61,375 bases of DNA from a bacterium (GTDB lineage: Bacteria > Patescibacteriota > Patescibacteriia > UBA1558 > S5-K13). The position numbers were made by a program, and so were the translations under genes. The notes beneath the pieces were generated by a model. That model saw nothing but the letters and a program-made list of their open reading frames with translations, ran no database searches and was not told the origin of the DNA. The stretch lies in assembly GCA_035356975.1 (NCBI GenBank), contig DAORGW010000002.1:1-61375 (forward strand). The letters run 5' to 3'. This document shows, piece by piece, positions 4,013 through 59,237 of the stretch; position 1 is the stretch's first letter; every line of letters starts with the position of its first letter.

Positions 4013-4492
4013 CTAAACACGCGTCTCTAAAATAAAATTTTTGACATTTAGTGGATTATAAATAAAATCAAAATAAACAATTTGTTTATTTTTCAATTTA
4101 ATTATCATATCTCCTATTTTAAATAATTTTAAAAATAAATTTCTGTATTCTATTTCAATTTGTAAAATACTATCAAGTAAAAACTCTTCCATGTCATTTT
4201 TAAAAAATCCAAAATAACAATTTATACATTTTTTATTTGTAATAACCAAACAATCATACTCCCATCTTTTATAAACAACGTATGTCGAAATAACACAAAA
4301 AATTATTATAACAAAAAATAATACAAAGCCTATTATTCCCAGTTTCATAATTGGAACCATAAAGAAGAAAGCACTTAAAAATAATATAAACCTAAATATT
4401 ATTTTTATTGCAAGAAAAAAAACTGAATAATGAAAAATTTCTAAAAGCTCTTCATTATTTGATAAATATTTGCTAAAATATTTATAAGACAT
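4013..4492 (-). CDS. hypothetical membrane protein (two TM helices plus a small soluble domain)
   Basis: Hydrophobic hairpin FFLAIKIIFRFILFLSAFFF / GIIGFVLFFVIIIFCVI; no family assigned with confidence. Confidence 0.45.
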   Translation of the reverse strand: MSYKYFSKYLSNNEELLEIFHYSVFFLAIKIIFRFILFLSAFFFMVPIMKLGIIGFVLFFVIIIFCVISTYVVYKRWEYDCLVITNKKCINCYFGFFKNDMEEFLLDSILQIEIEYRNLFLKLFKIGDMIIKLKNKQIVYFDFIYNPLNVKNFILETRV

Positions 4493-4596
4493 AAAATTAT
4501 GAAAAAAAGTAAACTAGTAAAGATATTTTGGGTAATAACAGCTACTATTGTTATATTTTCTATGATAGCCTGGACTATTGGAATTAATTATTTATA

Positions 4597-6408
4597 TTAA
4601 TCTCTTTTTAACACTGATAAATATACGTCTTGAGGCAATTCAACCCTACCGCTGGATTGCATTCTTTTTTTACCTTGCTTCTGTTTTGCTAATAATTTTT
4701 TCTTTCTACTTACGTCTCCTCCGTATAATTTTGCCGTAACATCTTTTCGGAGCGCACTTAATCTTTCCGCTGCAATAACTTTTGAACCAATAGATGCCTG
4801 TATTTTTACAACAAATTGTTGTCTTGGAATTACTTCTTTTAATCTATCCACAATTCCACGACCCACTCTATATGCCTCATCTTTATACACAAATGATGAA
4901 AGTGGCTCAACAAGCTCTTCTGCTATATAAATGTCCAATCTCAATAAATCAACTTTTTCATATTTCAAAAATTCATAATTTAAAGACGCATAACCACGAC
5001 TTACGCTTTTTAATTTATCATAAAAATCGACTAAAATAGGGGTGAGTGGAATTTCATATTGCAAAACAACAAGATCCTGGTCTAAATATTTTGTATTTTT
5101 GTAAATTCCACGACGCTCTGTTGCTAAACTCATCACAGAACCAATATATTCACTTGGTGTTACAATATCCATTGTTACAATTGGCTCTTCTATATAATTT
5201 ATAAATTGTTCTTCTAATTCCGCTGGTTTTGTAAGCTCTATATAGCTTCCCTTGTCATCTTTTATGATATCACCTTTAAATTTATGAATCATCTCATTTT
5301 TTAAATAAGCACGATATGCAACAGATGGAATTGTTACAACTAAATCAAGATTATATTCTCTGTTTAATCTCTGTAAAAAGATATCTAGGTGTAGTAACCC
5401 TAAAAATCCACATCTAAATCCAAATCCAAAAACAGGTGAGGAGTCTTTCTGAATTTCAAGTGAAGAATCATTTAATTTTAGTTTTTCTACAGCATCGCGA
5501 AGTTCTTCATAGTTATCACCTCCACGAGAATAAATTCCCGCAAAAACCATAGGTTTTACAATTTTATATCCTGGAAGTGCTTCATTTTGCTCTGAAACAA
5601 GTGAAATTGTATCTCCAACTCTTACACTTCTTAAATCTCTTTCGCCTGTTATTATATAACCTATTTCACCACTTTGAAGTTCATTTGATTTTTCATGTTT
5701 TATTTTAAAATATCCAACCTCTAAAACTTCTGCTGTTTTATTAGTTCCTAAAAATTTTACCCTATCTCCTCTTTTAAACTTTCCCTCAACAATTCTAACA
5801 TAACTTATTATTCCCTTGTATTCATCGTAGACAGAATCAAAAATAAGAGCTCTATTTTTTGAAAAATCAATGCGTGGTTCTGGAATTAAATTTATAACCT
5901 GATCTAATAATTTATCAACATTTAATCCAGTTTTTGCTGAAATTCCAATTATATCATCGGGATTACATTGAATTAAATTCACTATTTCTTCTTTTGTTTT
6001 TTCTACGTCAGCGGTTTGTAAATCAACTTTATTTATAACTGGAACAATTTTTAAATTTTGTTCTTGAGCAAAACGTAAATTTACAAGAGTTTGAGCTTGA
6101 ATTCCCTTTGTTGCGTCTACTACTAAAATTGCTCCTTCAACGCAAGCAATTGATCGACTCACTTCATAACTAAAATCCATATGTCCGGGGGTATCAATTA
6201 AATCCAAAATATAGTCTTTATATTTCATTCTAACTGGTTGAAGTTTTATTGTTATTCCTCTTTCACGCTCCAAGTCCATGTTATCTAAAATCTGATCTTT
6301 CATTTCACGACTTGATAATGTATTCGTAATTTCTAATAGCCTATCAGCTAATGTGGATTTTCCATGATCAATATGAGCAATAATACAAAAATTTCTAATA
6401 TTTGACAT
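4597..6408 (-). CDS. lepA: translation elongation factor 4 (LepA); start taken at MSNIRNF rather than the ORF-track start 6426
   Basis: NIRNFCIIAHIDHGKSTLADRLL, DTPGHMDF, NKVDL GTPase motifs and a LepA C-terminal domain. Confidence 0.95.
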   Translation of the reverse strand: MSNIRNFCIIAHIDHGKSTLADRLLEITNTLSSREMKDQILDNMDLERERGITIKLQPVRMKYKDYILDLIDTPGHMDFSYEVSRSIACVEGAILVVDATKGIQAQTLVNLRFAQEQNLKIVPVINKVDLQTADVEKTKEEIVNLIQCNPDDIIGISAKTGLNVDKLLDQVINLIPEPRIDFSKNRALIFDSVYDEYKGIISYVRIVEGKFKRGDRVKFLGTNKTAEVLEVGYFKIKHEKSNELQSGEIGYIITGERDLRSVRVGDTISLVSEQNEALPGYKIVKPMVFAGIYSRGGDNYEELRDAVEKLKLNDSSLEIQKDSSPVFGFGFRCGFLGLLHLDIFLQRLNREYNLDLVVTIPSVAYRAYLKNEMIHKFKGDIIKDDKGSYIELTKPAELEEQFINYIEEPIVTMDIVTPSEYIGSVMSLATERRGIYKNTKYLDQDLVVLQYEIPLTPILVDFYDKLKSVSRGYASLNYEFLKYEKVDLLRLDIYIAEELVEPLSSFVYKDEAYRVGRGIVDRLKEVIPRQQFVVKIQASIGSKVIAAERLSALRKDVTAKLYGGDVSRKKKLLAKQKQGKKRMQSSGRVELPQDVYLSVLKRD

Positions 6409-6412
6409 AACG

Positions 6413-7978
6413 TTATCTATTAACAAATTTTTTAAAATATTTTTTTATTAATTGAACTTCCTCTATTTTTTCAAAAATTGAAATAAAGTAATATAGAGCA
6501 AAGCCTATTATAAACAAAATTATCAATTCTGCCAATACTTTTATTAATGACTCTATTCCGATATATTTTATATAAATTAATCTCAAAAAATAAAAAAATA
6601 CAAAAATAATTAATGAATTAAATAAAATTTTCAAAAAATAAATAAGCAATATTTTACATTTACAAAATTTGTGCTTTAAAGATAGTAAAACCGATAACAA
6701 TATAGCAAATATTGTATTACTTATTGAAAACGCAATAGCCAATCCTATTATTCCAATTTTACGAGATAAAAATATTGCCATAACAATATTTAAAGCTAAA
6801 CTTATAAAACTCAAAATCACGGGAGTTCTTGTATTTTCATGCGCGTAAAAAGCTCGAGACAATACATTAGAAATACATTGAAATAGCATTGAAGCACAAA
6901 ACCACCCAAAAACAATTGATGTGTAATTTATATTCTCTATATTAAAATTTCCAGTCCCAAGAACAATTTTTACTATTTCAAATCTTGTAAGAATCATAAA
7001 TAAAGAAATTGGCACTACAAAAAAAATTATTTTTTTTAAATTTCTCTCTAAATATAAATTAAAATTTTCATTATTTCCCTCATTTACAAATTCTGACAAA
7101 ACTGGAAATATTGCAATTGCAACAGAAACCCCAAAAATACTTACAACAAAAGATTGTAAATTTATCCCAAAATAAAATACCGAAATACTTCCAACAACAA
7201 GCGATGATGCAATCATTGTAATTACAAACTGATTTATCTGACCCAAAACCAAAGCAACCGTTCTCGGAATCATTAATTTAAAAATCCTTAAAACATTTTT
7301 ATCTTTTAAATTAAAAACAAGTTCATATCTCCACCCAAGTTTTACTAACTCTATTAATTGGATTAAAAAATGAAGCAATGCACCAAGCACAACGCCCCAA
7401 GCCAACATATCATAACCAAAATATTTTGATGCAACTATTCCAGCAATTAATCCTAAATTATAAAAAACCGGTGCAATACTATAGGTAATATAAGTTTTTT
7501 TTGAATTTAATATTGAGCTCGCAACAGAAGAAAATCCAAAAATTACTACACTTATAAGCATAATTGATGTAAGACGAACTGTGAGTTGTAATTGAAAATA
7601 ATTAAATCCAGGCGCTAAAAGTTTCACCAAAAAATCAACATTAAAAAATGCAATTAAACAAAGTATAGATAAAATTAATGTAATTATATTTAAAACTGAA
7701 TTTGATACTTTTATAGCATATTTTTCATCTTCTTTACTTAATTTTACAAAAACAGGAACAAATGCACTAGCAAGCGCCCCCAAAATCAAAGAATTAAAAA
7801 TAAAATCTGGAATTCTAAATGCAGCAAAATATGAATCTAAAATTTGTCCCGCACCAAAACTTGATGCAAGCATTCTATCCCTTAAAAGCCCCAAAATCTT
7901 GCTTAAAACAGAAAAAACGCTAATTAGTATAGCGCCACCTAAAACAGTCTTATTTAAGCTTTTAAATGGATTTTTCAT
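6413..7978 (-). CDS. murJ: lipid II flippase MurJ/MviN
   Basis: 521-aa polytopic protein with N-terminal LSKILGLLRDRMLASSFGAG and AFRIPDFIFN motifs. Confidence 0.88.
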   Translation of the reverse strand: MKNPFKSLNKTVLGGAILISVFSVLSKILGLLRDRMLASSFGAGQILDSYFAAFRIPDFIFNSLILGALASAFVPVFVKLSKEDEKYAIKVSNSVLNIITLILSILCLIAFFNVDFLVKLLAPGFNYFQLQLTVRLTSIMLISVVIFGFSSVASSILNSKKTYITYSIAPVFYNLGLIAGIVASKYFGYDMLAWGVVLGALLHFLIQLIELVKLGWRYELVFNLKDKNVLRIFKLMIPRTVALVLGQINQFVITMIASSLVVGSISVFYFGINLQSFVVSIFGVSVAIAIFPVLSEFVNEGNNENFNLYLERNLKKIIFFVVPISLFMILTRFEIVKIVLGTGNFNIENINYTSIVFGWFCASMLFQCISNVLSRAFYAHENTRTPVILSFISLALNIVMAIFLSRKIGIIGLAIAFSISNTIFAILLSVLLSLKHKFCKCKILLIYFLKILFNSLIIFVFFYFLRLIYIKYIGIESLIKVLAELIILFIIGFALYYFISIFEKIEEVQLIKKYFKKFVNR

Positions 7979-16977: not shown

Positions 16978-16994
16978 AACAACAAATATAAATT

Positions 16995-17392
16995 TGCTAA
17001 ATTAGCTATAAGCCGAATTCTGTTTCCTCCAAAAGGAGGCGATGATCATCTATCTTGTCTATTTATCACTAAATAGATCTAGCAACTTACCACTCCCACA
17101 AAATGGGATTTCTTAGTTTTGCACCGAATAGAGTTTACCTCTTCTCTATTGTCGCTAATAGAGCGTCTGAGCTAATTATCTCAGAATTTCACCCTTATCC
17201 CCGACGATATTTCGCGAAGCGAAACGAATCAAGGGAAGGAATTTTTTCTGTTGCACTTGTCCTCTTTTAAAATCACTTTTAAAAGGATTGCCGTTAGCAA
17301 TTATTCCCGAGTTATAAAACTTGGCAAAATGGTGTTCGGACTTTCCTCGATAAACCATAATAGTTTACCGCGATCATCCACTAATCTAGCTT
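16995..17392 (-). ncRNA. rnpB: RNase P RNA (bacterial type A)
   Basis: The reverse complement contains CGAGGAAAGTCCGAACACC (P4 5' strand), AGGGTGAAA, GGTAAACTC...GGTGCAA and ACAGAATTCGGCTTAT (P4 3' strand). The ends pair as P1 (gctagattag / ctaatttagc). The region is visibly more G+C-rich than its flanks. Confidence 0.9.
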
Positions 17393-27104: not shown

Positions 27105-27132
27105 TTTTTTATTTCGAGCTATGCTCTATATT

Positions 27133-41400: not shown

Positions 41401-42975
41401 TTACTCTATACTAAAACCTATTTCATAATCCCTAAAAGATGCTTCACTTATATCATGAACTAATTTATTCCAATTAGGACCATATAATCTATTGGCGGCA
41501 TTTTCTGTTTTTATCCACTGCAATGCTCCACCAGCAGAAACTCTATACACTTTTGGAATTGATGGTATTTTTACTAAAGAATTGGCATTAAATGGTACAT
41601 TTTTACCCAAAGGATATGATTCTAATTTTCTAGAAGACACAGAGGGGATATTATAAAAAGCATTACTATCAAAATAAGAATACCATATAGATTCATTAAT
41701 ATATGCGTGCCTTATTTGATTCATATCTATAAAATATACGGCGGATGTGTCCCTTGACTTTACCCAAGAACCCCTAGTCCAAAATGATAAATTTTGTTTA
41801 TTAAAACTATTATCCAAAGAAGCGTCTAAATTTAATCTTGCAATATAATTTCTCATCTGCCCATTATACATTGTAAATTTACCAACTATAATTATTCGAC
41901 TATCTTGATCTAATTTAGAAAAAAAGATTGCGTTATCTGCGCCGAGATTTGGGTTAAAACTTGTATCAAGCGAACCATCTGAGTTTAATCTTGCAATACG
42001 ATTTCTTGATGTCCTGTTATATTTTGAAAAATATCCACTTATTATTAATTTATTATCCCGCTGTCTGTATATAGAATAAATAGTATAATCTGCCCCAGAA
42101 CCAGGATTAAAACTTGTATCAAGCGAACCATCTGAGTTTAATCTTGCAATACGATTTCTTGATATCCCGTTATATGTTGTAAAATCACCACCTATTATTA
42201 TTTTTCCACCAGATCCAATTGTTAAAAATCTAATAAATTGATCTGCCCCAGAACCAGGATTAAAACTTGTATCAAGTGATCCATCTAAATTTAATCTTGC
42301 AATACGATTTCTTGATATCCCGTTATATGTTGTAAAATCACCACCTATTATTATTTTTCCATCTGGTTGAAAAGTAGAAGTATAAACAGAATATCTTGCC
42401 CCCAAACCAGGATTAAAACTTGTATCAAGTGATCCATCTGAATTTAATCTTGCAACACCACCCCTTCCTAAATAGTCATATCTTGTAAAGTCTCCTACTA
42501 TTATTATTTTTCCATCTGACTGAATAGAGCAGCCATAAATAGAATTATCCGCCCCATTACCAATATTAAAACTTGTATCAAGCGAACCATCTGAGTTTAA
42601 TCTTGCGATACGGTTTCTTGATGTACCATTATATGTTGTAAAATCACCACCTATTATTATTTTTCCGTCTTGTTGTTCACACATAGAACGGATTATATTA
42701 TTTAACCCAGAGCCAGGATTAAAACTTGTATCAAGCGAACCATCTGAGTTTAATCTTGCAATACGATTTCTTGATGTACCATTATATGTTGTAAAATCAC
42801 CACCTATTATTATTTTGCCATCTGGCTGAAGAGTATAAACATATATCTGATTATTTGCCCCTTGATATATATTTTCTGACAATGTTGTATCTGCCAGAGA
42901 ATTACTAATAAAATATATACTTGCACCCACAACCATTAAAGATATTATCAATAAAATCTTATTTATTCTTTTCAT
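41401..42975 (-). CDS. secreted delta-60-repeat (seven-blade beta-propeller-like) protein with a C-terminal unknown domain
   Basis: Signal/TM N-terminus, then 7 tandem units of about 51 aa: DGKIIIGGDFTTYNGxSRNRIARLNSDGSLDTSFNPGSGA. Confidence 0.75.
   Translation of the reverse strand: MKRINKILLIISLMVVGASIYFISNSLADTTLSENIYQGANNQIYVYTLQPDGKIIIGGDFTTYNGTSRNRIARLNSDGSLDTSFNPGSGLNNIIRSMCEQQDGKIIIGGDFTTYNGTSRNRIARLNSDGSLDTSFNIGNGADNSIYGCSIQSDGKIIIVGDFTRYDYLGRGGVARLNSDGSLDTSFNPGLGARYSVYTSTFQPDGKIIIGGDFTTYNGISRNRIARLNLDGSLDTSFNPGSGADQFIRFLTIGSGGKIIIGGDFTTYNGISRNRIARLNSDGSLDTSFNPGSGADYTIYSIYRQRDNKLIISGYFSKYNRTSRNRIARLNSDGSLDTSFNPNLGADNAIFFSKLDQDSRIIIVGKFTMYNGQMRNYIARLNLDASLDNSFNKQNLSFWTRGSWVKSRDTSAVYFIDMNQIRHAYINESIWYSYFDSNAFYNIPSVSSRKLESYPLGKNVPFNANSLVKIPSIPKVYRVSAGGALQWIKTENAANRLYGPNWNKLVHDISEASFRDYEIGFSIE
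41785..42855. repeat. seven tandem repeats of about 153 bp within the delta-60 repeat gene, several stretches identical at the DNA level
   Basis: For example gattaaaacttgtatcaagcgaaccatctgagtttaatcttgc recurs at about 42107, 42570 and 42717. Confidence 0.85.
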
Positions 42976-44360: not shown

Positions 44361-45653
44361 TTATTTTTCTTTTATATCTTGCGTTCCTCTTCTTATATCC
44401 CAATCATCTTTATCTAGATCTGATTGTAGTTTAATCTCTGGAAAATTATTTAAAAGCTCTCTTGTCATTTTATGTGCAATATTTCTCAATGTTGGATGAA
44501 CACTTTTCCCAGATCTAAGTTCTGTTACATAACAAGCAGCAGGAAGTCCATAAGCTACACGACAAGTAACATTAAAACCAAGTGATATATAATATTGCTT
44601 TATAAATTCAGAAGTATCTAATTCATCTATTAATTTTTTCTGATTCTTTATTAAATTTTCTGCTTCAATTCTTAAATCATCTGGTAATTGAGATAAATAC
44701 CACTCATTAAAACCAAATTCAGTTGTAAGAAGTGGCATACGACAAACTCCATTTCTGTGTCTTTGCAGATCCCTAAATGAACCAAAATCAAGCAGAAAAT
44801 CAAATCTTATAACCCCTAACTCTGTCAAAAAATGTGGTAATCCTGTTTTAATAGATCTTTTATTAAATAAATCAATATATTTTTTTAATTCCTCGTGTTT
44901 TATGTCTGTATAAAAGGCAAAGTCTGAATCTAATTTTTCTAATTTATAATATGAATATTTTTGCATTACATACTTTCTATAATTTTCTTGTTCTTCAAAT
45001 GTAACATCACTGAAACTATGAGAATATTTTTCTTTTAACTTATTCCAAATTTCTTTTGCAATATTTCTAACTTCTTCTATCGGATGATACTGCATTAAAA
45101 GCAATTTATCACTTGCTTGTCTTAAATTTGTATGCCAACTTAACTGTGTCGTAATTCCAGCTGGTAAAAATCCTCTCATTATATCAAAACATCTTGCATT
45201 TATAGCCCTTTGATAAATATTTTCATCTTCATCTGATTTCTTTGAATAAATTGATCTTATATGACTTTTAACACTTTCTTGATTTCCAATGTAAAACTTC
45301 ATCCAATTATTCAAAATTTCTTTAGATTTTTCATTATTTAAAGGATCTATAATTTCTTGTTTTGACATATCAATATATCTAGTACTTGTTTCTTGTCCAC
45401 TGTAAAGTGGCCAATCTTGAATAGATTTATCCGCTAGAATACTTAATTTCTCTATAAAAATCGTGGTACTTCCACAATCGGCAATACTTGAGTGCCCATA
45501 TCCGAGATAAAAAGTTTCCATAAATTTTCCAGATCCACATTTTCTTACTTTTTCAACGTGATCTATAACAGAACTAGCGCTTCTTGAATAGAGCGCTTGA
45601 AGCATTGCATTATCTTCAGGATTAAATTCATCAAAAATAAAAATTTTTGCCAT
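44361..45653 (-). CDS. thyX: long (430 aa) ThyX-like flavin-dependent thymidylate synthase family protein, apparently a fused two-lobe form
   Basis: The N-terminal lobe has SGQETSTRYI (the S-x-Q-E-S-x-RY part of the ThyX motif) and the C-terminal lobe has FRDLQRHRNG (RHR motif); embedded among dut, folA and dCMP deaminase. Confidence 0.6.
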   Translation of the reverse strand: MAKIFIFDEFNPEDNAMLQALYSRSASSVIDHVEKVRKCGSGKFMETFYLGYGHSSIADCGSTTIFIEKLSILADKSIQDWPLYSGQETSTRYIDMSKQEIIDPLNNEKSKEILNNWMKFYIGNQESVKSHIRSIYSKKSDEDENIYQRAINARCFDIMRGFLPAGITTQLSWHTNLRQASDKLLLMQYHPIEEVRNIAKEIWNKLKEKYSHSFSDVTFEEQENYRKYVMQKYSYYKLEKLDSDFAFYTDIKHEELKKYIDLFNKRSIKTGLPHFLTELGVIRFDFLLDFGSFRDLQRHRNGVCRMPLLTTEFGFNEWYLSQLPDDLRIEAENLIKNQKKLIDELDTSEFIKQYYISLGFNVTCRVAYGLPAACYVTELRSGKSVHPTLRNIAHKMTRELLNNFPEIKLQSDLDKDDWDIRRGTQDIKEK

Positions 45654-47345: not shown

Positions 47346-47933
47346 ATGTATAAACTACAAAAAAATTTAGGCATGTACCTAAGTTCGTTAATTCTTATTA
47401 TTTTTACAATAATTTTTTTGATTAAAGGCAATTTTGAATTTATAACCTATACAATTTCTATAGGTTTTTTAATTTTTATTATCATAAAAACAGATAAAAA
47501 ATTTAATTATCCTCAAATTGCTAAATTTGGATTTGCTATCTGGTTGTTATTACATTTTCTAGGTGGCTCTCTAAAAATTAATGGAATTAGATTGTATGAC
47601 ACAATACTTATTCCTATTTTTTCTGAACCATTAAATATTTTTAGATATGATCAATTATTACACACCTTTTGTTATTTTGTTTTCGTGTTCTTTGTTTATT
47701 CAGTTGTCAAAAATAGTCTAAAAGAAAATATAAGCAAGGGAATGACTTTGTTTATTATTGTTTTAATCGCGGAGGGAATTGGTGCAATAAATGAAATAAT
47801 AGAATTATCTACGGTTGTTTTCTTTCATACACAAGGTGTTGGTAATTATTACAACAATGCCCTTGATTTAGTATTTAATCTTATTGGGGCAATGCTGGGC
47901 TCTATAATAATTTTAAATACTAATAAAGAATAA
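47346..47933 (+). CDS. polytopic membrane protein (195 aa)
   Basis: Five to six hydrophobic helices; family not recognised with confidence. Confidence 0.5.
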   Translation: MYKLQKNLGMYLSSLILIIFTIIFLIKGNFEFITYTISIGFLIFIIIKTDKKFNYPQIAKFGFAIWLLLHFLGGSLKINGIRLYDTILIPIFSEPLNIFRYDQLLHTFCYFVFVFFVYSVVKNSLKENISKGMTLFIIVLIAEGIGAINEIIELSTVVFFHTQGVGNYYNNALDLVFNLIGAMLGSIIILNTNKE

Positions 47934-47969
47934 CGATAATTAATTTCACATATAATTTAAAAAATTAAA

Positions 47970-47986
47970 TCTTGTTTAAAACAAGA
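47970..47986. promoter_or_regulatory. 17-bp perfect palindrome TCTTGTTTAAAACAAGA, 7 nt before the ATG of family gene A (TATAAT at 47951-56)
   Basis: Exact copy in front of all four MQEKF genes. Confidence 0.45.
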
Positions 47987-47993
47987 AAAAATT

Positions 47994-49064
47994 ATGCAAG
48001 AAAAATTTGTAAATGCCATAAAGACTCAAGTAGCAACAAAAGTCTCTACAAAGACAAAAGTTTTGTTAGGACTTATTATTGTTGCATCCCTTAGTGGCAT
48101 GTTTGCACTCATAGGACTAAGTTCAAAAACATTATTAAAGCAAAATGTTGTGAGGAAAACAAATTCAAATATGACTGTCAATGATGAAATTGTAAAAGTA
48201 AACAGAATAGATACCGGAAAAATACAGAACAATTTATTAAATAAATATGTTTATACGGAAACAGAAAAAATAGAAACAAGGGAAATTAATATCCCGTATA
48301 ATGATATAGTTTTAGGTATAAGTTATGGTACTAATAACGATCACATTCCCACAATGGACGGAATAATTAATGATTGGGAGCAAGAAAATACAACAATAAG
48401 ACATTCTCTTCCAGGATCAAATAATTTTTCTCACGATATATATAGTAAACTGGTGGACAATAAAATTTATTTGGCTGTAAAGGCAAGCGGTTATGCTGAT
48501 GTTTGCGATATAAAGAAATTTCCTTATATGCAAATTATTAATTTTAATGTTAAATTAGAAGAGGGCCATAATACATTTTATGGTTCTGGGAGTTTAGATT
48601 ATGCCAATAATGCACATCAGGAAGATTTGAAAATGGTACATTTAGATTTAAACTTTAATGATGGGCAAACTTATTTGTGTGATGGGTATTTAGCAGAAAC
48701 TGATGACCAAAATAATTTTAATTATTGGAAGGCTATGTGCAGTACATATATGCCGGAGCAAATAGATTTTAGGGGCGGGGTTACATTATACCAAAATAAT
48801 GATCTTTGTGTTATATCTGGAGAAATGCTTATTCCATTAAAGGGACAAGACGGCATCTATGTTGAGGGTTTTAATGATGAAAGCGATTTAAATCTTGGAT
48901 CGAATGAAAGATTAATAGGCATAAGACATTTCTTTGGGGCGGGGGGCATGTCTTTATCACCATCAACGCTTTATCCTGATCCTTACGGTTATTATAAAAT
49001 AAGAATAATAGAACCAACAATAAGTAAACCGCCAACAAATGTTCTTCATACATCGCCACAATAA
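47994..49064 (+). CDS. MQEKF-family signal-anchored protein A (356 aa), unknown C-terminal domain with 4 Cys
   Basis: The first 71 nt of the CDS are identical to genes B and D. N-terminus MQEKFVNAIKTQVATKVSTKTKVLLGLIIVASLSGMFAL includes a TM helix. Confidence 0.75.
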   Translation: MQEKFVNAIKTQVATKVSTKTKVLLGLIIVASLSGMFALIGLSSKTLLKQNVVRKTNSNMTVNDEIVKVNRIDTGKIQNNLLNKYVYTETEKIETREINIPYNDIVLGISYGTNNDHIPTMDGIINDWEQENTTIRHSLPGSNNFSHDIYSKLVDNKIYLAVKASGYADVCDIKKFPYMQIINFNVKLEEGHNTFYGSGSLDYANNAHQEDLKMVHLDLNFNDGQTYLCDGYLAETDDQNNFNYWKAMCSTYMPEQIDFRGGVTLYQNNDLCVISGEMLIPLKGQDGIYVEGFNDESDLNLGSNERLIGIRHFFGAGGMSLSPSTLYPDPYGYYKIRIIEPTISKPPTNVLHTSPQ

Positions 49065-49121
49065 GACAGAATCATAATAAAATTTCCTATTTAAAATTTC
49101 ACATATAATTTAAAAATTAAA

Positions 49122-49138
49122 TCTTGTTTAAAACAAGA
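49122..49138. promoter_or_regulatory. 17-bp palindrome TCTTGTTTAAAACAAGA before family gene B
   Basis: Exact repeat; TATAAT at 49103-08. Confidence 0.45.
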
Positions 49139-49145
49139 AAAAATT

Positions 49146-49781
49146 ATGCAAGAAAAATTTGTAAATGCCATAAAGACTCAAGTAGCAACAAAAGTCTCTA
49201 CAAAGACAAAAGTTTTACTTGGTTTAATGATGATGGCTTGTTTAGGTGGAATGTTTGCAATAATAAATACACTTAATTTTAAAACATTAAAACAAACAAG
49301 AAAAGTTACAACAACACATTCTAATGATTATATTAATCTAAAACGCATATTAAATGATTTTAAAAACCAAAATAAAAATAATAAACCAGAGCTTATTGAA
49401 CATATTTTATTGTTAGAAAATTTTATAAATAATACAGAAAAAAACACCCCAACCAATCATGATAAACAAATTTTACAAAGCTGTATAAAAACAGATACAG
49501 CAAAAACAATAACTGATAATTTAGAATACTTGGAATGTTTAGAAAATAATAATTTCCCATTAAAAAAAATCTCTGGATATTCTACAAATGAGCTTGTGGA
49601 AACCATCAATACCGCAAATTCAATAGAAGAAACATATGGAACAGATCCTGGACCAGATCATCCCTGTTGCGAACGTTTCTGCAATTACTATTGTCTGAAA
49701 CCCTGTGGTGAAGATACTTGTTGCGCATGCAATTTTACAGGACTTTTAAATGCAATAATTGGTTGGCTACTTGGATTATAA
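49146..49781 (+). CDS. MQEKF-family signal-anchored protein B (211 aa) with an 8-Cys tail and a hydrophobic C-terminus
   Basis: The first 113 nt are identical to gene D. Tail: PCCERFCNYYCLKPCGEDTCCACNFTGLLNAIIGWLLGL. Confidence 0.75.
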   Translation: MQEKFVNAIKTQVATKVSTKTKVLLGLMMMACLGGMFAIINTLNFKTLKQTRKVTTTHSNDYINLKRILNDFKNQNKNNKPELIEHILLLENFINNTEKNTPTNHDKQILQSCIKTDTAKTITDNLEYLECLENNNFPLKKISGYSTNELVETINTANSIEETYGTDPGPDHPCCERFCNYYCLKPCGEDTCCACNFTGLLNAIIGWLLGL

Positions 49782-49816
49782 TATTTATTAATTTCACATA
49801 TAATTTAAAAATTAAA

Positions 49817-49833
49817 TCTTGTTTAAAACAAGA
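49817..49833. promoter_or_regulatory. 17-bp palindrome TCTTGTTTAAAACAAGA before family gene C
   Basis: Exact repeat; TATAAT at 49798-49803. Confidence 0.45.
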
Positions 49834-49840
49834 AAAAATT

Positions 49841-50368
49841 ATGCAAGAAAAATTTATAAATGCTACACAAACACAAACAACCACACAAGTTTCAACAAAG
49901 ACAAAAATTTTGTTAGGACTTATTATTGTTGCCTCAATAACTGGAATCTTTGTTGTAATTAGTTTAAGTATTAATAATATGGGCACTAAAAAACAATTAA
50001 TCGAGACAAAGAAGAAAATAATAGAAAATGATTTATTTGACCAAAAAACAGGGGAACGCATTTTGTATAGAACAAATAATGGACTTAAATTAGAGGCGGG
50101 ATATAAATTTATAAGAATAAATAATAATTTATTGCAAATTGTTAAAAATATTGGAGATGGAACATATCTTGAGTTACCAGGTGGAATTACATTCACTGGC
50201 TGTGATTGTTTTTACGAAAGCGCTACTGGTTCTTGTACGGCAAATTGTAGTACCGTAGTGCAAGATAATAATATGACAAGTTGTTCTGGTAGTTGTACTG
50301 GGGATTGTGGAGTTAGTTGTAAAGAGTATTCTGTAACAATAGACCCAAGCACTCTTATTATTAAATAA
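49841..50368 (+). CDS. MQEKF-family signal-anchored protein C (175 aa) with an 8-Cys C-terminal region (start at the internal ATG of ORF 49718..50368)
   Basis: The conserved upstream module ends at the ATG at 49841. N-terminus MQEKFINATQTQTTTQVSTKTKILLGLIIVAS; Cys region GCDCFYESATGSCTANCSTVVQDNNMTSCSGSCTGDCGVSC. Confidence 0.7.
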   Translation: MQEKFINATQTQTTTQVSTKTKILLGLIIVASITGIFVVISLSINNMGTKKQLIETKKKIIENDLFDQKTGERILYRTNNGLKLEAGYKFIRINNNLLQIVKNIGDGTYLELPGGITFTGCDCFYESATGSCTANCSTVVQDNNMTSCSGSCTGDCGVSCKEYSVTIDPSTLIIK

Positions 50369-50442
50369 AAATATTTAAATTTAAATTAAAAAATATCATT
50401 ATAAAAAATATTAAAAAATAACCATTAATTTAAAAAATTAAA

Positions 50443-50459
50443 TCTTGTTTAAAACAAGA
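50443..50459. promoter_or_regulatory. 17-bp palindrome TCTTGTTTAAAACAAGA before family gene D
   Basis: Exact repeat. Confidence 0.45.
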
Positions 50460-50466
50460 AAAAATT

Positions 50467-51444
50467 ATGCAAGAAAAATTTGTAAATGCCATAAAGACTC
50501 AAGTAGCAACAAAAGTCTCTACAAAGACAAAAGTTTTACTTGGTTTAATGATGATGGCTTGTTTAGGTGGAATGTTTGCTATAGCGTCAAGTACAACAAA
50601 GTTAATAAACACCCCTCAAAAAAACACCAATAGACCAACAACTATATCTTCAAGAAAAAATGATGAGTCGTTTTATGCTTTATCTAGATGTCCTAGAGGT
50701 ATGGTAGCAATAAATGGGAACATTGCATGTAATGAAAATGGATCCACCATAAGACCATCAATGGTATCTTCTTCAGCAGAAACATCTAACTTTACAAACA
50801 ATGGCTGGATAGGAACATGCAGGGGAATAGGTGATGTTTGGGTGGGATCAATATGTATTGACCCCGATGAATTATCTATTCAAAATGCACCATTTGCACA
50901 CACAACTCATTACACAAATGATGAAGAAAGCTATGAGGCCGTTTCAGTGTGTCCAACGAGTACAACGGCAATAGGTGGATGGGTTGATTGTGCTGATCCA
51001 GGATCAACAACCGTTAGACCATCAATGGTTTACTCTGAACCATTAATAACTAATTTTCAACATACTGGATGGATAGGCGCATGTAAAGGCAATGGTAGTG
51101 TATATGTAGGTGCAATATGTGCGAATTCAGACAGAATAACAACCTATCAAGGAGAAACTCTCGGGGAAAATGAACACACAACCAATGATCAGATAAGTTA
51201 CGAAGCAACATCAATGTGTCCCAATGGAAAAGTAGCAATAGGGGCAAATGTCACTTGCAATGGAATAAATGGTGGCACAAGACCATCAATGGTTTACTCA
51301 GGACCTGAGATAATTAATTTTCAAAATATTGGATGGAAGGGGGCTTGTAAGGGACCGGGTAGTATTCGCGTACTAGCGATATGTGTAGATCCAGAACAAG
51401 TAACTATTCAAAATGGAGAGGTTGTGTTTACACAACATCATTAA
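50467..51444 (+). CDS. MQEKF-family signal-anchored protein D (325 aa) with three 4-Cys repeats of about 85 aa
   Basis: Shared N-terminal module, then 3 repeats of the pattern SYEAxSxCPxGxxAIGxxxxC...RPSMVYS...NFQxxGWxGACKGxGSxxVxAIC. Confidence 0.75.
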   Translation: MQEKFVNAIKTQVATKVSTKTKVLLGLMMMACLGGMFAIASSTTKLINTPQKNTNRPTTISSRKNDESFYALSRCPRGMVAINGNIACNENGSTIRPSMVSSSAETSNFTNNGWIGTCRGIGDVWVGSICIDPDELSIQNAPFAHTTHYTNDEESYEAVSVCPTSTTAIGGWVDCADPGSTTVRPSMVYSEPLITNFQHTGWIGACKGNGSVYVGAICANSDRITTYQGETLGENEHTTNDQISYEATSMCPNGKVAIGANVTCNGINGGTRPSMVYSGPEIINFQNIGWKGACKGPGSIRVLAICVDPEQVTIQNGEVVFTQHH

Positions 51445-51463
51445 TTGATAAACTTTTTTAATT

Positions 51464-51493
51464 TCAAAAACTCCGCTTAGCGGAGTTTTTGAA
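51464..51493. terminator. bidirectional intrinsic terminator between family gene D and rplA
   Basis: caaaaactccgc-tta-gcggagtttttg. Confidence 0.8.
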
Positions 51494-51510
51494 ATATATA
51501 AATTTTATAT

Positions 51511-52188
51511 TTACATATTAACTTTAAGTCCTGGTCCCATTGTTGAAGAAAGTGCAACTGATTTTATATATACGCCTTTTAATGATTGTGGCTTTGCTTT
51601 TTTAACAGCATCTACAAAAGATTTTACATTATCCACTAATTTATTTTCATCAAAACTAATTTTTCCGACAGCTAAATGAACATTTGCACTATCATCATTT
51701 TTAAATGACTCTTTACCAGATTTTAATTCTGTAATCATTTTTTTAACGTCATTATCAATTGTTCCTGATTTTGGATTTGGCATTAATCCTTTTTGACCTA
51801 AAATTTTTGCAATTGAAGCAAGGCGAGGCATAATTTCTGGAGTTGCAACTGCAATATCAAAATCACATTTTCCACTTTGTCTTATTTTTTCGATATACTC
51901 ATCATCACCAATTATATCAGCTCCGGCAGCTTTTGCTTCATCAATTTTAGTAGTAAAAGCAACTAATTTTCTTACTTTTCCATTGCCATGTGGTAATGTA
52001 ACGGTTGATCTTACTATTTGTTCACCTTTTTTAGGATCAATACCTAAAGAAATATGAGCCTCAAGAGATGAATCAAATTTTACATTTGCAGTATTTTTAA
52101 GAATTGACACAGCTTCTTCAACTGTATAAATTTTCTTTGTATCAACACTACTTTTTATCGCTTTCATTCTTTTTGACAATTTTGCCAT
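51511..52188 (-). CDS. rplA: 50S ribosomal protein L1
   Basis: MAKLSKRMKA..., GTVTLPHGNGK-like motif, 225 aa. Confidence 0.95.
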   Translation of the reverse strand: MAKLSKRMKAIKSSVDTKKIYTVEEAVSILKNTANVKFDSSLEAHISLGIDPKKGEQIVRSTVTLPHGNGKVRKLVAFTTKIDEAKAAGADIIGDDEYIEKIRQSGKCDFDIAVATPEIMPRLASIAKILGQKGLMPNPKSGTIDNDVKKMITELKSGKESFKNDDSANVHLAVGKISFDENKLVDNVKSFVDAVKKAKPQSLKGVYIKSVALSSTMGPGLKVNM

Positions 52189-59198: not shown

Positions 59199-59237
59199 AA
59201 AATTAATTTAGAGCTATGCTCTATTATACTTAAATTA

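Follow-up and report, generated by a model that had tools for sequence, protein, structure and literature searches.

How might a bacterium come to carry four neighbouring genes that begin alike and then part into unrelated sequences? The question is raised by a tandem array of four genes, here called A to D, in a 61,375-nt stretch of DNA (the window; contig DAORGW010000002.1 of assembly GCA_035356975.1, positions 1 to 61,375) from a member of the Patescibacteria. These bacteria, also known as the candidate phyla radiation (CPR), are believed to live attached to other cells, and their surface and secreted proteins are little known. We consider it probable that the array belongs to a lineage-specific family with a Sec-type signal-anchor or signal peptide, in which cassettes encoding the ectodomains turn over by homologous recombination. 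Throughout, the shared region from the promoter to the end of the leader is called the head or module, and the remainder of each protein is called the body.

The array and its repeated head

Four open reading frames (ORFs), all on the + strand, were found at the coordinates and with the lengths given in the preliminary description of this DNA: A at 47994-49064 (356 amino acids, aa), B at 49146-49781 (211 aa), C at 49841-50368 (175 aa) and D at 50467-51444 (325 aa). Each is introduced by a module in which a -10-like box, degraded in the case of D, precedes an inverted repeat of 17 nt and a sequence encoding a 46-aa leader. The 5′ module of A (47942-47993) contains TATAAT at 47951-47956, followed by an A-tract, the inverted repeat TCTTGTTTAAAACAAGA at 47970-47986 and an A-rich spacer; its leader, encoded at 47994-48131, joins a 22-aa Thr/Lys-rich tail, MQEKFVNAIKTQVATKVSTKTK, to an uninterrupted hydrophobic span of about 22 aa. 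The modules of B (49095-49145; TATAAT at 49104-49109, inverted repeat at 49122-49138) and C (49787-49840; TATAAT at 49799-49804, inverted repeat at 49817-49833) have the same layout. In the module of D (50430-50466; inverted repeat at 50443-50459), the homology begins only at about -37, and cATTAAT stands where A, B and C have TATAAT. The idea that an upstream block of about 50 nt is common to all four genes is thus correct for A, B and C but not for D. The intergenic gaps of 59-98 nt are filled by the promoter and hairpin of the next gene. The A-tract that separates the -10 box from the inverted repeat (47957-47965 in A, 49110-49117 in B, 49805-49812 in C and 50430-50438 in D) has six A in the A and D copies and five in those of B and C, possibly a slipped-strand length difference.

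The identity continues into the coding sequence (CDS), where nt 1-71 are the same in A, B and D and nt 1-113 are the same in B and D, while C is a diverged copy, all as first described; across the first 78 nt, its identity is 77-82%. A repeat finder recognized the modules as one repeat family in the window (4 × 175 nt, 78-100% identity), and the 44-nt core from the inverted repeat through ATG+14 occurs there exactly four times, against 0.00 expected from shuffled sequences. An assembly artefact as the source of the array itself was ruled out, in that independent assemblies show the same junctions.

The bodies

Past the leader, at about codon 46, the resemblance ends: no pairwise BLASTP similarity was found among the four bodies (best E 0.48). 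That of A contains four Cys; that of B consists of a Lys/Asn-rich spacer and a C-terminal 10-Cys block with a hydrophobic tail; that of C has an 8-Cys C-terminal block opening with GCDC; and that of D carries three repeats of 264 nt (88 aa) from nt 50668, with four Cys each. The wider family, the delimitation of which is described below, behaves in the same way. Its 24 full-length members fall into 15 body classes without BLASTP links, so that the family as a whole holds at least 15 classes. Most bodies are of 90-130 aa with 6-13 Cys, and the Cys count is even in 22 of the 24. Several classes open their Cys-rich block with h-C-x-C, and four have similar Cys spacing. A proposed homology of the C-type and P0020-class Cys blocks through the CxC motif was ruled out by hhalign (probability 0.2%).

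Proteins A-D gave no matches in Pfam, NCBIfam, PHROGs or PADLOC. Among their relatives, P0012 contains an Lcl_C domain (54.6 bits against a cutoff of 34.9), and other members have a borderline BNR_4, which passes the cutoff narrowly by summed score with no single qualifying match, and a Dockerin_1 just under the cutoff. The recognizable modules, which come from these relatives and not from A-D, are of extracellular type. The body of A has no homolog among 5.8 billion proteins, and a word-indexed search with A returned only proteins that share its leader. The body of D has a single ortholog, P0010 (83% identical); the ortholog of C, P0017, is 85% identical; and in P0011, the ortholog of B at the related locus L005, the last 50 or so residues, with the Cys block and the hydrophobic tail, are nearly invariant. 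No match was found in sequence searches of the PDB with A and with a profile of the D repeat. AlphaFold2 modelled full-length D with a pLDDT of 39 and a single 88-aa repeat, from a 6-row alignment, with a pLDDT of 63 and a pTM of 0.50; the repeat is predicted to be all-beta. A Foldseek search of the PDB gave nothing better than E 0.4 and only generic beta-sandwiches, and no fold was assigned.

Might the four genes nevertheless be ordinary diverged paralogs, descended from one ancestor that was duplicated in tandem, whose bodies drifted while the leader stayed alike? The h-C-x-C opening of several body classes and the similar Cys spacing of four would accord with such a history. However, neither BLASTP nor profile-profile comparison detects a signal between bodies, which at the sequence level bears out the earlier statement that the C-terminal domains are mutually unrelated. 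Lengths and architectures also differ, with three 88-aa beta repeats in one protein and a helical spacer plus a Cys block in another, and the boundary of identity is sharp, with mosaic tracts. Moreover, orthologous bodies are 81-85% identical, compared with 82-96% for the flanking housekeeping genes. Because they evolve at this housekeeping-like rate, drift beyond recognition within one lineage is unlikely, and we regard simple divergence of paralogs as very improbable. The same ordinary rates suggest that diversity arises by the gain, loss and replacement of cassettes rather than by hypermutation.

Homogenization and mosaicism of the heads

Two processes keep the heads alike. First, codons 1-26 of 11 distinct leaders differ far more at synonymous (pS 0.48) than at nonsynonymous sites (pN 0.13); a ratio of 0.26 at a pS of about 0.5 shows that the leader peptide is maintained by selection. 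Second, A, B and D of the window are 95-100% identical to one another across the first 78 nt, but only 86-88% identical to their own orthologs in L005, where the two paralogs are 87% identical to each other. Because the paralogs in the window are closer than the orthologs, their near-identity reflects recent gene conversion or duplication on top of long-term constraint. The proposal that homogenization produced the conserved 5′ cassette therefore applies to recent events within the genome of the window; across species, purifying selection also preserves the leader. In addition, the heads are mosaics, since nt 66-92 of A match C and not B or D, and the upstream region of C is identical to that of B through ATG+14 and then only 77% identical.

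Cassette turnover among relatives

If heads recombine, related genomes should differ in the bodies behind them, and this is what we observed. The array lies between a gene for a DUF2238 membrane protein (47346-47933, + strand; Pfam PF09997), which forms its conserved left border, and rplA. In the window, L005, L019 and L002/3, the gene right after DUF2238 is a leader gene, and D is the last gene in every array, adjoining rplA. Between these borders, relatives at about 85-90% identity hold different sets: A-B-C-D in the window, B′-D′ in L005 (on a 50-kb contig, with non-identical modules) and C′-D″ in L018/L019. D alone follows DUF2238 in L002/L003, and A-D is found in L004; in these two cases, the A-to-D and DUF2238-to-D junctions span an identical repeat of 116-160 nt, so that the arrangements may be path choices of the assembler and are weak evidence of turnover. 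The firm cases are L005, L018/19 and the comparison of L016 with L014, in which the modules are non-identical.

A second locus has the order pheT, a gene for a small transmembrane (TM) protein, an AAA+ ATPase gene, a leader gene, gyrB, groES and groEL. In four species with ATPases that are 85-88% identical, the leader gene at this position has a different body in each. L016 and L014 share 96-98% identity in their flanks and over nt 1-113 of the leader CDS; beyond that point they differ by a whole cassette, and another module comes next. The apparent junctions sit at the ends of identity tracts within the leader CDS. Two further proteins occupy the same variable slot of L014. One, of 156 aa (4444-4914), carries a distant, degenerate version of the leader; the other, of 142 aa (5774-6202), is membrane-anchored, has a CYYC motif with no Pfam match and might be a thiol-disulfide oxidoreductase.

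DNA has also passed between the two loci. In the window, a 30+30-nt inverted repeat (51448-51508; strand not assigned), likely a bidirectional terminator, separates D from the convergent rplA. At the AAA-gyrB locus of L007 (10797-11099, equivalent to L013 5797-6099), a leader gene is followed by this D-rplA terminator and 300 nt of the 3′ end of rplA, a copy 84.5% identical to window positions 51507-51806. This fragment indicates that a cassette was transferred between the two loci together with flanking DNA.

The preliminary description had likened the sharp boundary to that of variable families maintained by recombination or gene conversion, and the mosaic tracts and the cassette differences among relatives, both in the slot after DUF2238 and at the second locus, agree with that view. 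What kind of recombination is involved? One possibility is a phase- or antigenic-variation locus of the type of Mycoplasma vsp, vpma or vsa, in which a site-specific recombinase acting on a repeat in the 5′ untranslated region (5′ UTR) would move silent bodies behind an active promoter. At the vpma and vsp loci, a conserved 5′ UTR and signal sequence precede divergent mature parts, and the recombination site lies at -1 to -72 (PMC2268961). The array has the same layout, slot occupancy differs between relatives, and D is without an intact -10 box in the window, yet has one where it comes first, in L002/3, and in L005. Against this possibility, neither an integrase nor a recombinase domain turned up when the window ORFs that encode 120 aa or more, and the genes called in the seven related loci, were scanned. 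A-D all have the same orientation, and A, B and C each retain TATAAT; the spacer within the inverted repeat is anywhere from 3 to 7 nt long, whereas a recombinase core would be of fixed length; and the lipobox is not conserved. Finally, the apparent junctions coincide with the points in the CDS where identity tracts stop, which is what homologous recombination predicts. Programmed variation of this type therefore seems unlikely to us. The 61-kb window as a whole contains no recombinase, transposase, dedicated exporter or transporter, or maturation enzyme, so that domain scans and a check of small ORFs agree with the earlier report that no recombinase, immunity-like small ORF or transporter is near the array.

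The leader family

How widespread is the leader, and what might it do? An exhaustive search of 1.84 billion representative proteins with a 48-aa hidden Markov model (HMM) of the leader retrieved 27 proteins at E<=1e-3, and in essentially all of them it is the N-terminal end that matches; those matches that were examined all come from close relatives among the Patescibacteria. The HMM search called for in the preliminary description has thus sized the family and found it to be narrow. A scan for loci with a narrower leader alignment gave two GTDB genome loci, three JGI metagenome loci and no IMG/VR viral contigs. The consensus reads M-x-E-K-F-x-x-A-T-Q-T-Q-V-A-T-K-V-S-T-K-T-K-V-L-L-G, followed by a helix with small residues (G26, A/S/C31-32, G34-35 and A38) and by G-M-F-A-I. 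A hydrophobic span of 18-24 aa with a mean Kyte-Doolittle hydropathy of 2.0-3.1 is present in all 28 members, and the N-terminal tail has a net charge of +2 to +5 in 27 of them and of 0 in P0030. These features suggest that the leader is either a signal-anchor with an N-in/C-out topology or a long cleavable signal, of the Sec type in both cases. By eye, the helix ends in a signal-peptidase-like AIA-S in D and several relatives; A, B and C have only weak candidate sites.

The leader fits no recognized class of signal. It has no match in Pfam or NCBIfam at E<=1; with regard to type IV pilins, G26 precedes the helix, yet neither a Glu at +5 nor the consensus was found in the 27 aligned leaders; GG sites, YSIRK and LPXTG are lacking in the leader family sequences inspected; and the translations of A-D contain no LPXTG and no serine-rich repeat region. 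This agrees with the original observation that lipobox, pilin motif and GG site are missing from A-D. We conclude that it is a lineage-specific, unannotated and, judging from sequence, putative export leader of a tiny family, with 27 clusters worldwide.

A lipobox-like pattern deserves closer consideration. If the Cys in the middle of the helix were a lipobox Cys, the proteins would be atypical lipoproteins with a long signal, as in the variable lipoproteins of mycoplasmas, and 10 of the 28 members do match [LVIM][ASTVI][GAS]C at this point (IAAC, IVGC and IAGC are examples). None of the four window genes does, however: Ser stands there in A and C, and B and D read MMAC. Across the family, the position is taken by Cys, Ser, Ala or Gly, and 8-12 more hydrophobic residues follow it, which makes a single helix of 18-24 aa. 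A lipoprotein family is therefore a highly improbable interpretation.

Two side observations concern the leader. In L022, downstream of a full-length member, a 46-aa ORF (P0033, 4866-5006) encodes the leader only, that is, tail, helix and stop; it could encode a small membrane peptide or be all that is left of a lost cassette. In the window, the gene at 41401-42975 (- strand) encodes a DUF5122 protein of the beta-propeller type (524 aa), the internal repeats of which, each about 153 nt long, are highly similar; it is probably a second surface protein near the array and is not found at this position in L005. This protein has an ordinary cleavable-looking signal peptide, so that the leader appears to set apart a particular subset of the exported proteins.

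An AAA+ ATPase as a possible partner

The conservation of the N-tail and of the helix residues extends far past the needs of a generic signal peptide. We therefore considered whether the head might be a recognition leader for a partner protein, and the AAA+ ATPase of the second locus is a candidate. This protein of 320 aa has an N-terminal TM helix and only the D1 module of ClpC/ClpB, with Walker A and B motifs and a KYRG pore loop; its best matches in the PDB are residues 150-426 of ClpC. In five or more species, its gene directly precedes a leader gene, the left flank being either pheT or PPDK (L007 8980-9942, L006 4051-5019, L012 4971-5846, L014 3443-4405 and L022 3040-4002). By analogy with accessory-Sec signals or with the leaders of bacteriocins or of ribosomally synthesized and post-translationally modified peptides (RiPPs), a membrane-anchored ClpC/ClpB-D1-like ATPase might thread or sort the Thr/Lys-rich tail. 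The Cys/Ser/Thr-rich C-termini bear a superficial likeness to the cores of RiPPs. On the other hand, the leader genes are not beside the ATPase in the window or in L005, and the 61-kb window lacks it altogether; the bodies, of 90-310 aa, include folded domains of extracellular type; and neither maturation enzymes nor an ATP-binding cassette (ABC) exporter occur nearby. The adjacency could also be nothing but inherited synteny. A partnership of this kind is in our opinion rather unlikely. In an extended form, which we hold to be just as doubtful, the leader would be the sorting signal of a Patescibacteria-specific pathway read by the D1-only ATPase, and the bodies would be surface or secreted cargo in contacts between episymbiont and host. 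If the link were true, it would point to a new protein-handling pathway.

The upstream inverted repeat

The core group has 12 distinct upstream regions. Each of them contains a -10-like TATA(T/A)A(T) box and the inverted repeat, which ends 5-11 nt before the ATG; the two most distant family members have no inverted repeat. The arms differ in sequence but keep their pairing, as in TCTTGTT...AACAAGA, TCTGTT...AACAGA, TTTTGTT...AACAAAA and TTTGCTTT...AAAGCAAA. In a MAFFT alignment, pairing is seen in 85.7% of cells, whereas sliding the partner lowers this share to 46-61%, and double changes occur in 10 cells, against 0-2; the observed values were reached in none of 500 shuffles. Because the spacer between the arms varies while pairing is kept by compensatory changes, a stem-loop is favoured over a dimer site of fixed spacing. 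We infer that the repeat may act as a 5′-proximal stem-loop of the mRNA in the control of stability or translation. Two exact copies of a hairpin, TAGAGCATAGCTC, lie elsewhere in the window, at 27116-27128 and 59211-59223 (- strand), each just past a TATAAT-like box. The ATG of an unrelated gene, for a class II tRNA synthetase in one case and a SurA-like protein in the other, follows after about 12-15 nt. Their layout of box, hairpin, A-rich tract and ATG matches that of the leader genes.

A model of the array

How could head and body work together? In our proposed model, the head would supply two things. First, it would provide expression signals, namely the TATAAT box, a short stem-loop in the 5′ UTR whose end is 5-11 nt from the AUG, and an initiation region rich in A. 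Second, it would provide export through the 22-aa Thr/Lys-rich cytoplasmic tail and the helix of 18-24 aa, with an AxA-like end in some members. The body would thereby be placed outside the membrane, where its even number of Cys could form disulfides. The repeated heads would be substrates for ordinary homologous recombination, which could delete, duplicate or swap bodies, while gene conversion would even out the heads within one genome. As a result, related strains would display different sets of ectodomains. We speculate that these ectodomains most likely mediate contact with cells or polymers, in the manner of adhesins or lectins, or act as disulfide-rich secreted effectors.

Several observations weigh against parts of this model. 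The proteome is rich in Lys, and the helix has positive charges on either side. The low-confidence structures may hide a structural homology among the bodies. The hairpin is weak (-3.4 to -6.9 kcal/mol; z-scores from +0.06 to -2.3), and a dimeric DNA-binding site would also account for its symmetric covariation. Of 103 ORFs scanned in these AT-rich genomes, 26 have a perfect stem of 6 bp or more upstream (nine leader genes are part of this count), and AT-only hairpins are frequent upstream of other genes.

If the model holds, searches with the leader should recover variable, probably host-facing proteins of the Patescibacteria, the attached ectodomains of which are exchanged between strains and between loci. 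The array would also be a compact natural case of promoter-to-leader modules serving as recombination substrates in a reduced genome, with no dedicated recombinase at the locus.

Genomic setting

The window has a GC content of 25-34%. Its MetRS gene identifies the organism as a member of the Patescibacteria, with more distant matches of the Microgenomates type. Nearly all of the other genes in the window are on the - strand and have housekeeping functions (cell wall, division, translation and nucleotide metabolism); the array and the DUF2238 gene, on the + strand, stand between a block encoding dCMP deaminase, dUTPase, ThyX and DHFR and the group rplA-rplK-nusG-secE. Together with the steadily falling cumulative GC skew, the other genes indicate co-orientation on the - strand, so that 47346-51444 is probably transcribed head-on to replication. 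Among all window ORFs of at least 120 aa, almost none is preceded by a Shine-Dalgarno-like sequence, and A/T-rich tracts precede the starts; the organism appears to initiate translation without Shine-Dalgarno pairing. A scan for sigma-70 promoter and terminator consensus sequences was uninformative at 27% GC, with 26 promoter-like sites against 29.7 expected. Rfam found only a bacterial RNase P RNA of class A (16993-17389, - strand; 192.5 bits) and one tRNA (2624-2696, - strand) in the window. The thymidylate synthase gene in the flanking block has been exchanged as well. The window encodes ThyX (Thy1, 430 aa; 44361-45653) between DHFR and dUTPase, and L005 encodes ThyA (Thymidylat_synt, 270 aa; 6079-6891) at the same position, which is a non-orthologous replacement within conserved synteny.

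Comparison with known systems

Which known systems does the array resemble? Polymorphic toxins such as Rhs, CDI and MafB also combine a conserved N-terminal part with a sharp boundary and C-terminal parts exchanged by recombination. In our array, however, the conserved part is merely a 46-aa leader, there are no dedicated secretion genes, A-D have no toxin match in Pfam or PADLOC, and no immunity ORFs lie near the array; the gaps of 59-98 nt hold no same-strand ORF of at least 40 aa apart from short overlapping frames. Unlike the precursors of RiPPs (lanthipeptide, NHLP/Nif11), the proteins are of 175-356 aa with a TM helix, and no such enzymes are encoded in the 61-kb window. The Pam pilus proteins of CPR bacteria have ordinary signal peptides and are unrelated to the leader family.

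Conotoxins and defensins join a conserved export signal to a small, disulfide-rich and highly divergent mature part. The NCR peptides of legumes similarly have a conserved signal and a hypervariable Cys-rich mature peptide (PMC7230169). Those are eukaryotic signals for the endoplasmic reticulum on short peptides, whereas the proteins described here are bacterial, with larger and heterogeneous bodies, and their diversity comes from cassette turnover and not from accelerated substitution. Among bacteria, the YSIRK/GXXS and KxYKxGKxW signal peptides carry motifs common to otherwise unrelated Gram-positive surface proteins, which are thought to be routed by them within the Sec pathway (PMC5962339, PMC11370438). 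The leader resembles these in joining an N-region motif and small residues in the hydrophobic region to unrelated proteins. By inspection, it contains neither of the two named motifs. It differs in the motif itself (TQTQVATKVSTKTKVLLG...GMFAI), which has no counterpart in Pfam or NCBIfam at the threshold given above, and in the lack of an LPXTG anchor, the longer hydrophobic span of 18-24 aa and its restriction to one small clade of Patescibacteria.

As regards the recombination itself, the lpl cluster of Staphylococcus aureus (Tsuru and Kobayashi 2008) provides a parallel, in that a conserved tract of tandem paralogs is a site of homologous recombination that shuffles variable regions and alters copy number (PMC2568036). 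That tract lies in the middle of the ORF, and homology between the paralogs extends over their whole length, in contrast to a head that runs from promoter to leader in front of unrelated bodies. The closest layout is that of the Mycoplasma loci (M. agalactiae vpma, M. bovis vsp and M. pulmonis vsa), which also consist of tandem genes with a conserved 5′ UTR and signal-peptide region and a strain-variable content (PMC2268961). Unlike them, the array has neither a conserved lipobox nor an Xer-type recombinase beside it, and it shows no inversions and no genes in opposed orientation. A -10 box of their own precedes most of its copies, and its bodies are Cys-containing and of a disulfide type, in contrast to the repeat-rich lipoproteins of the mycoplasmas.

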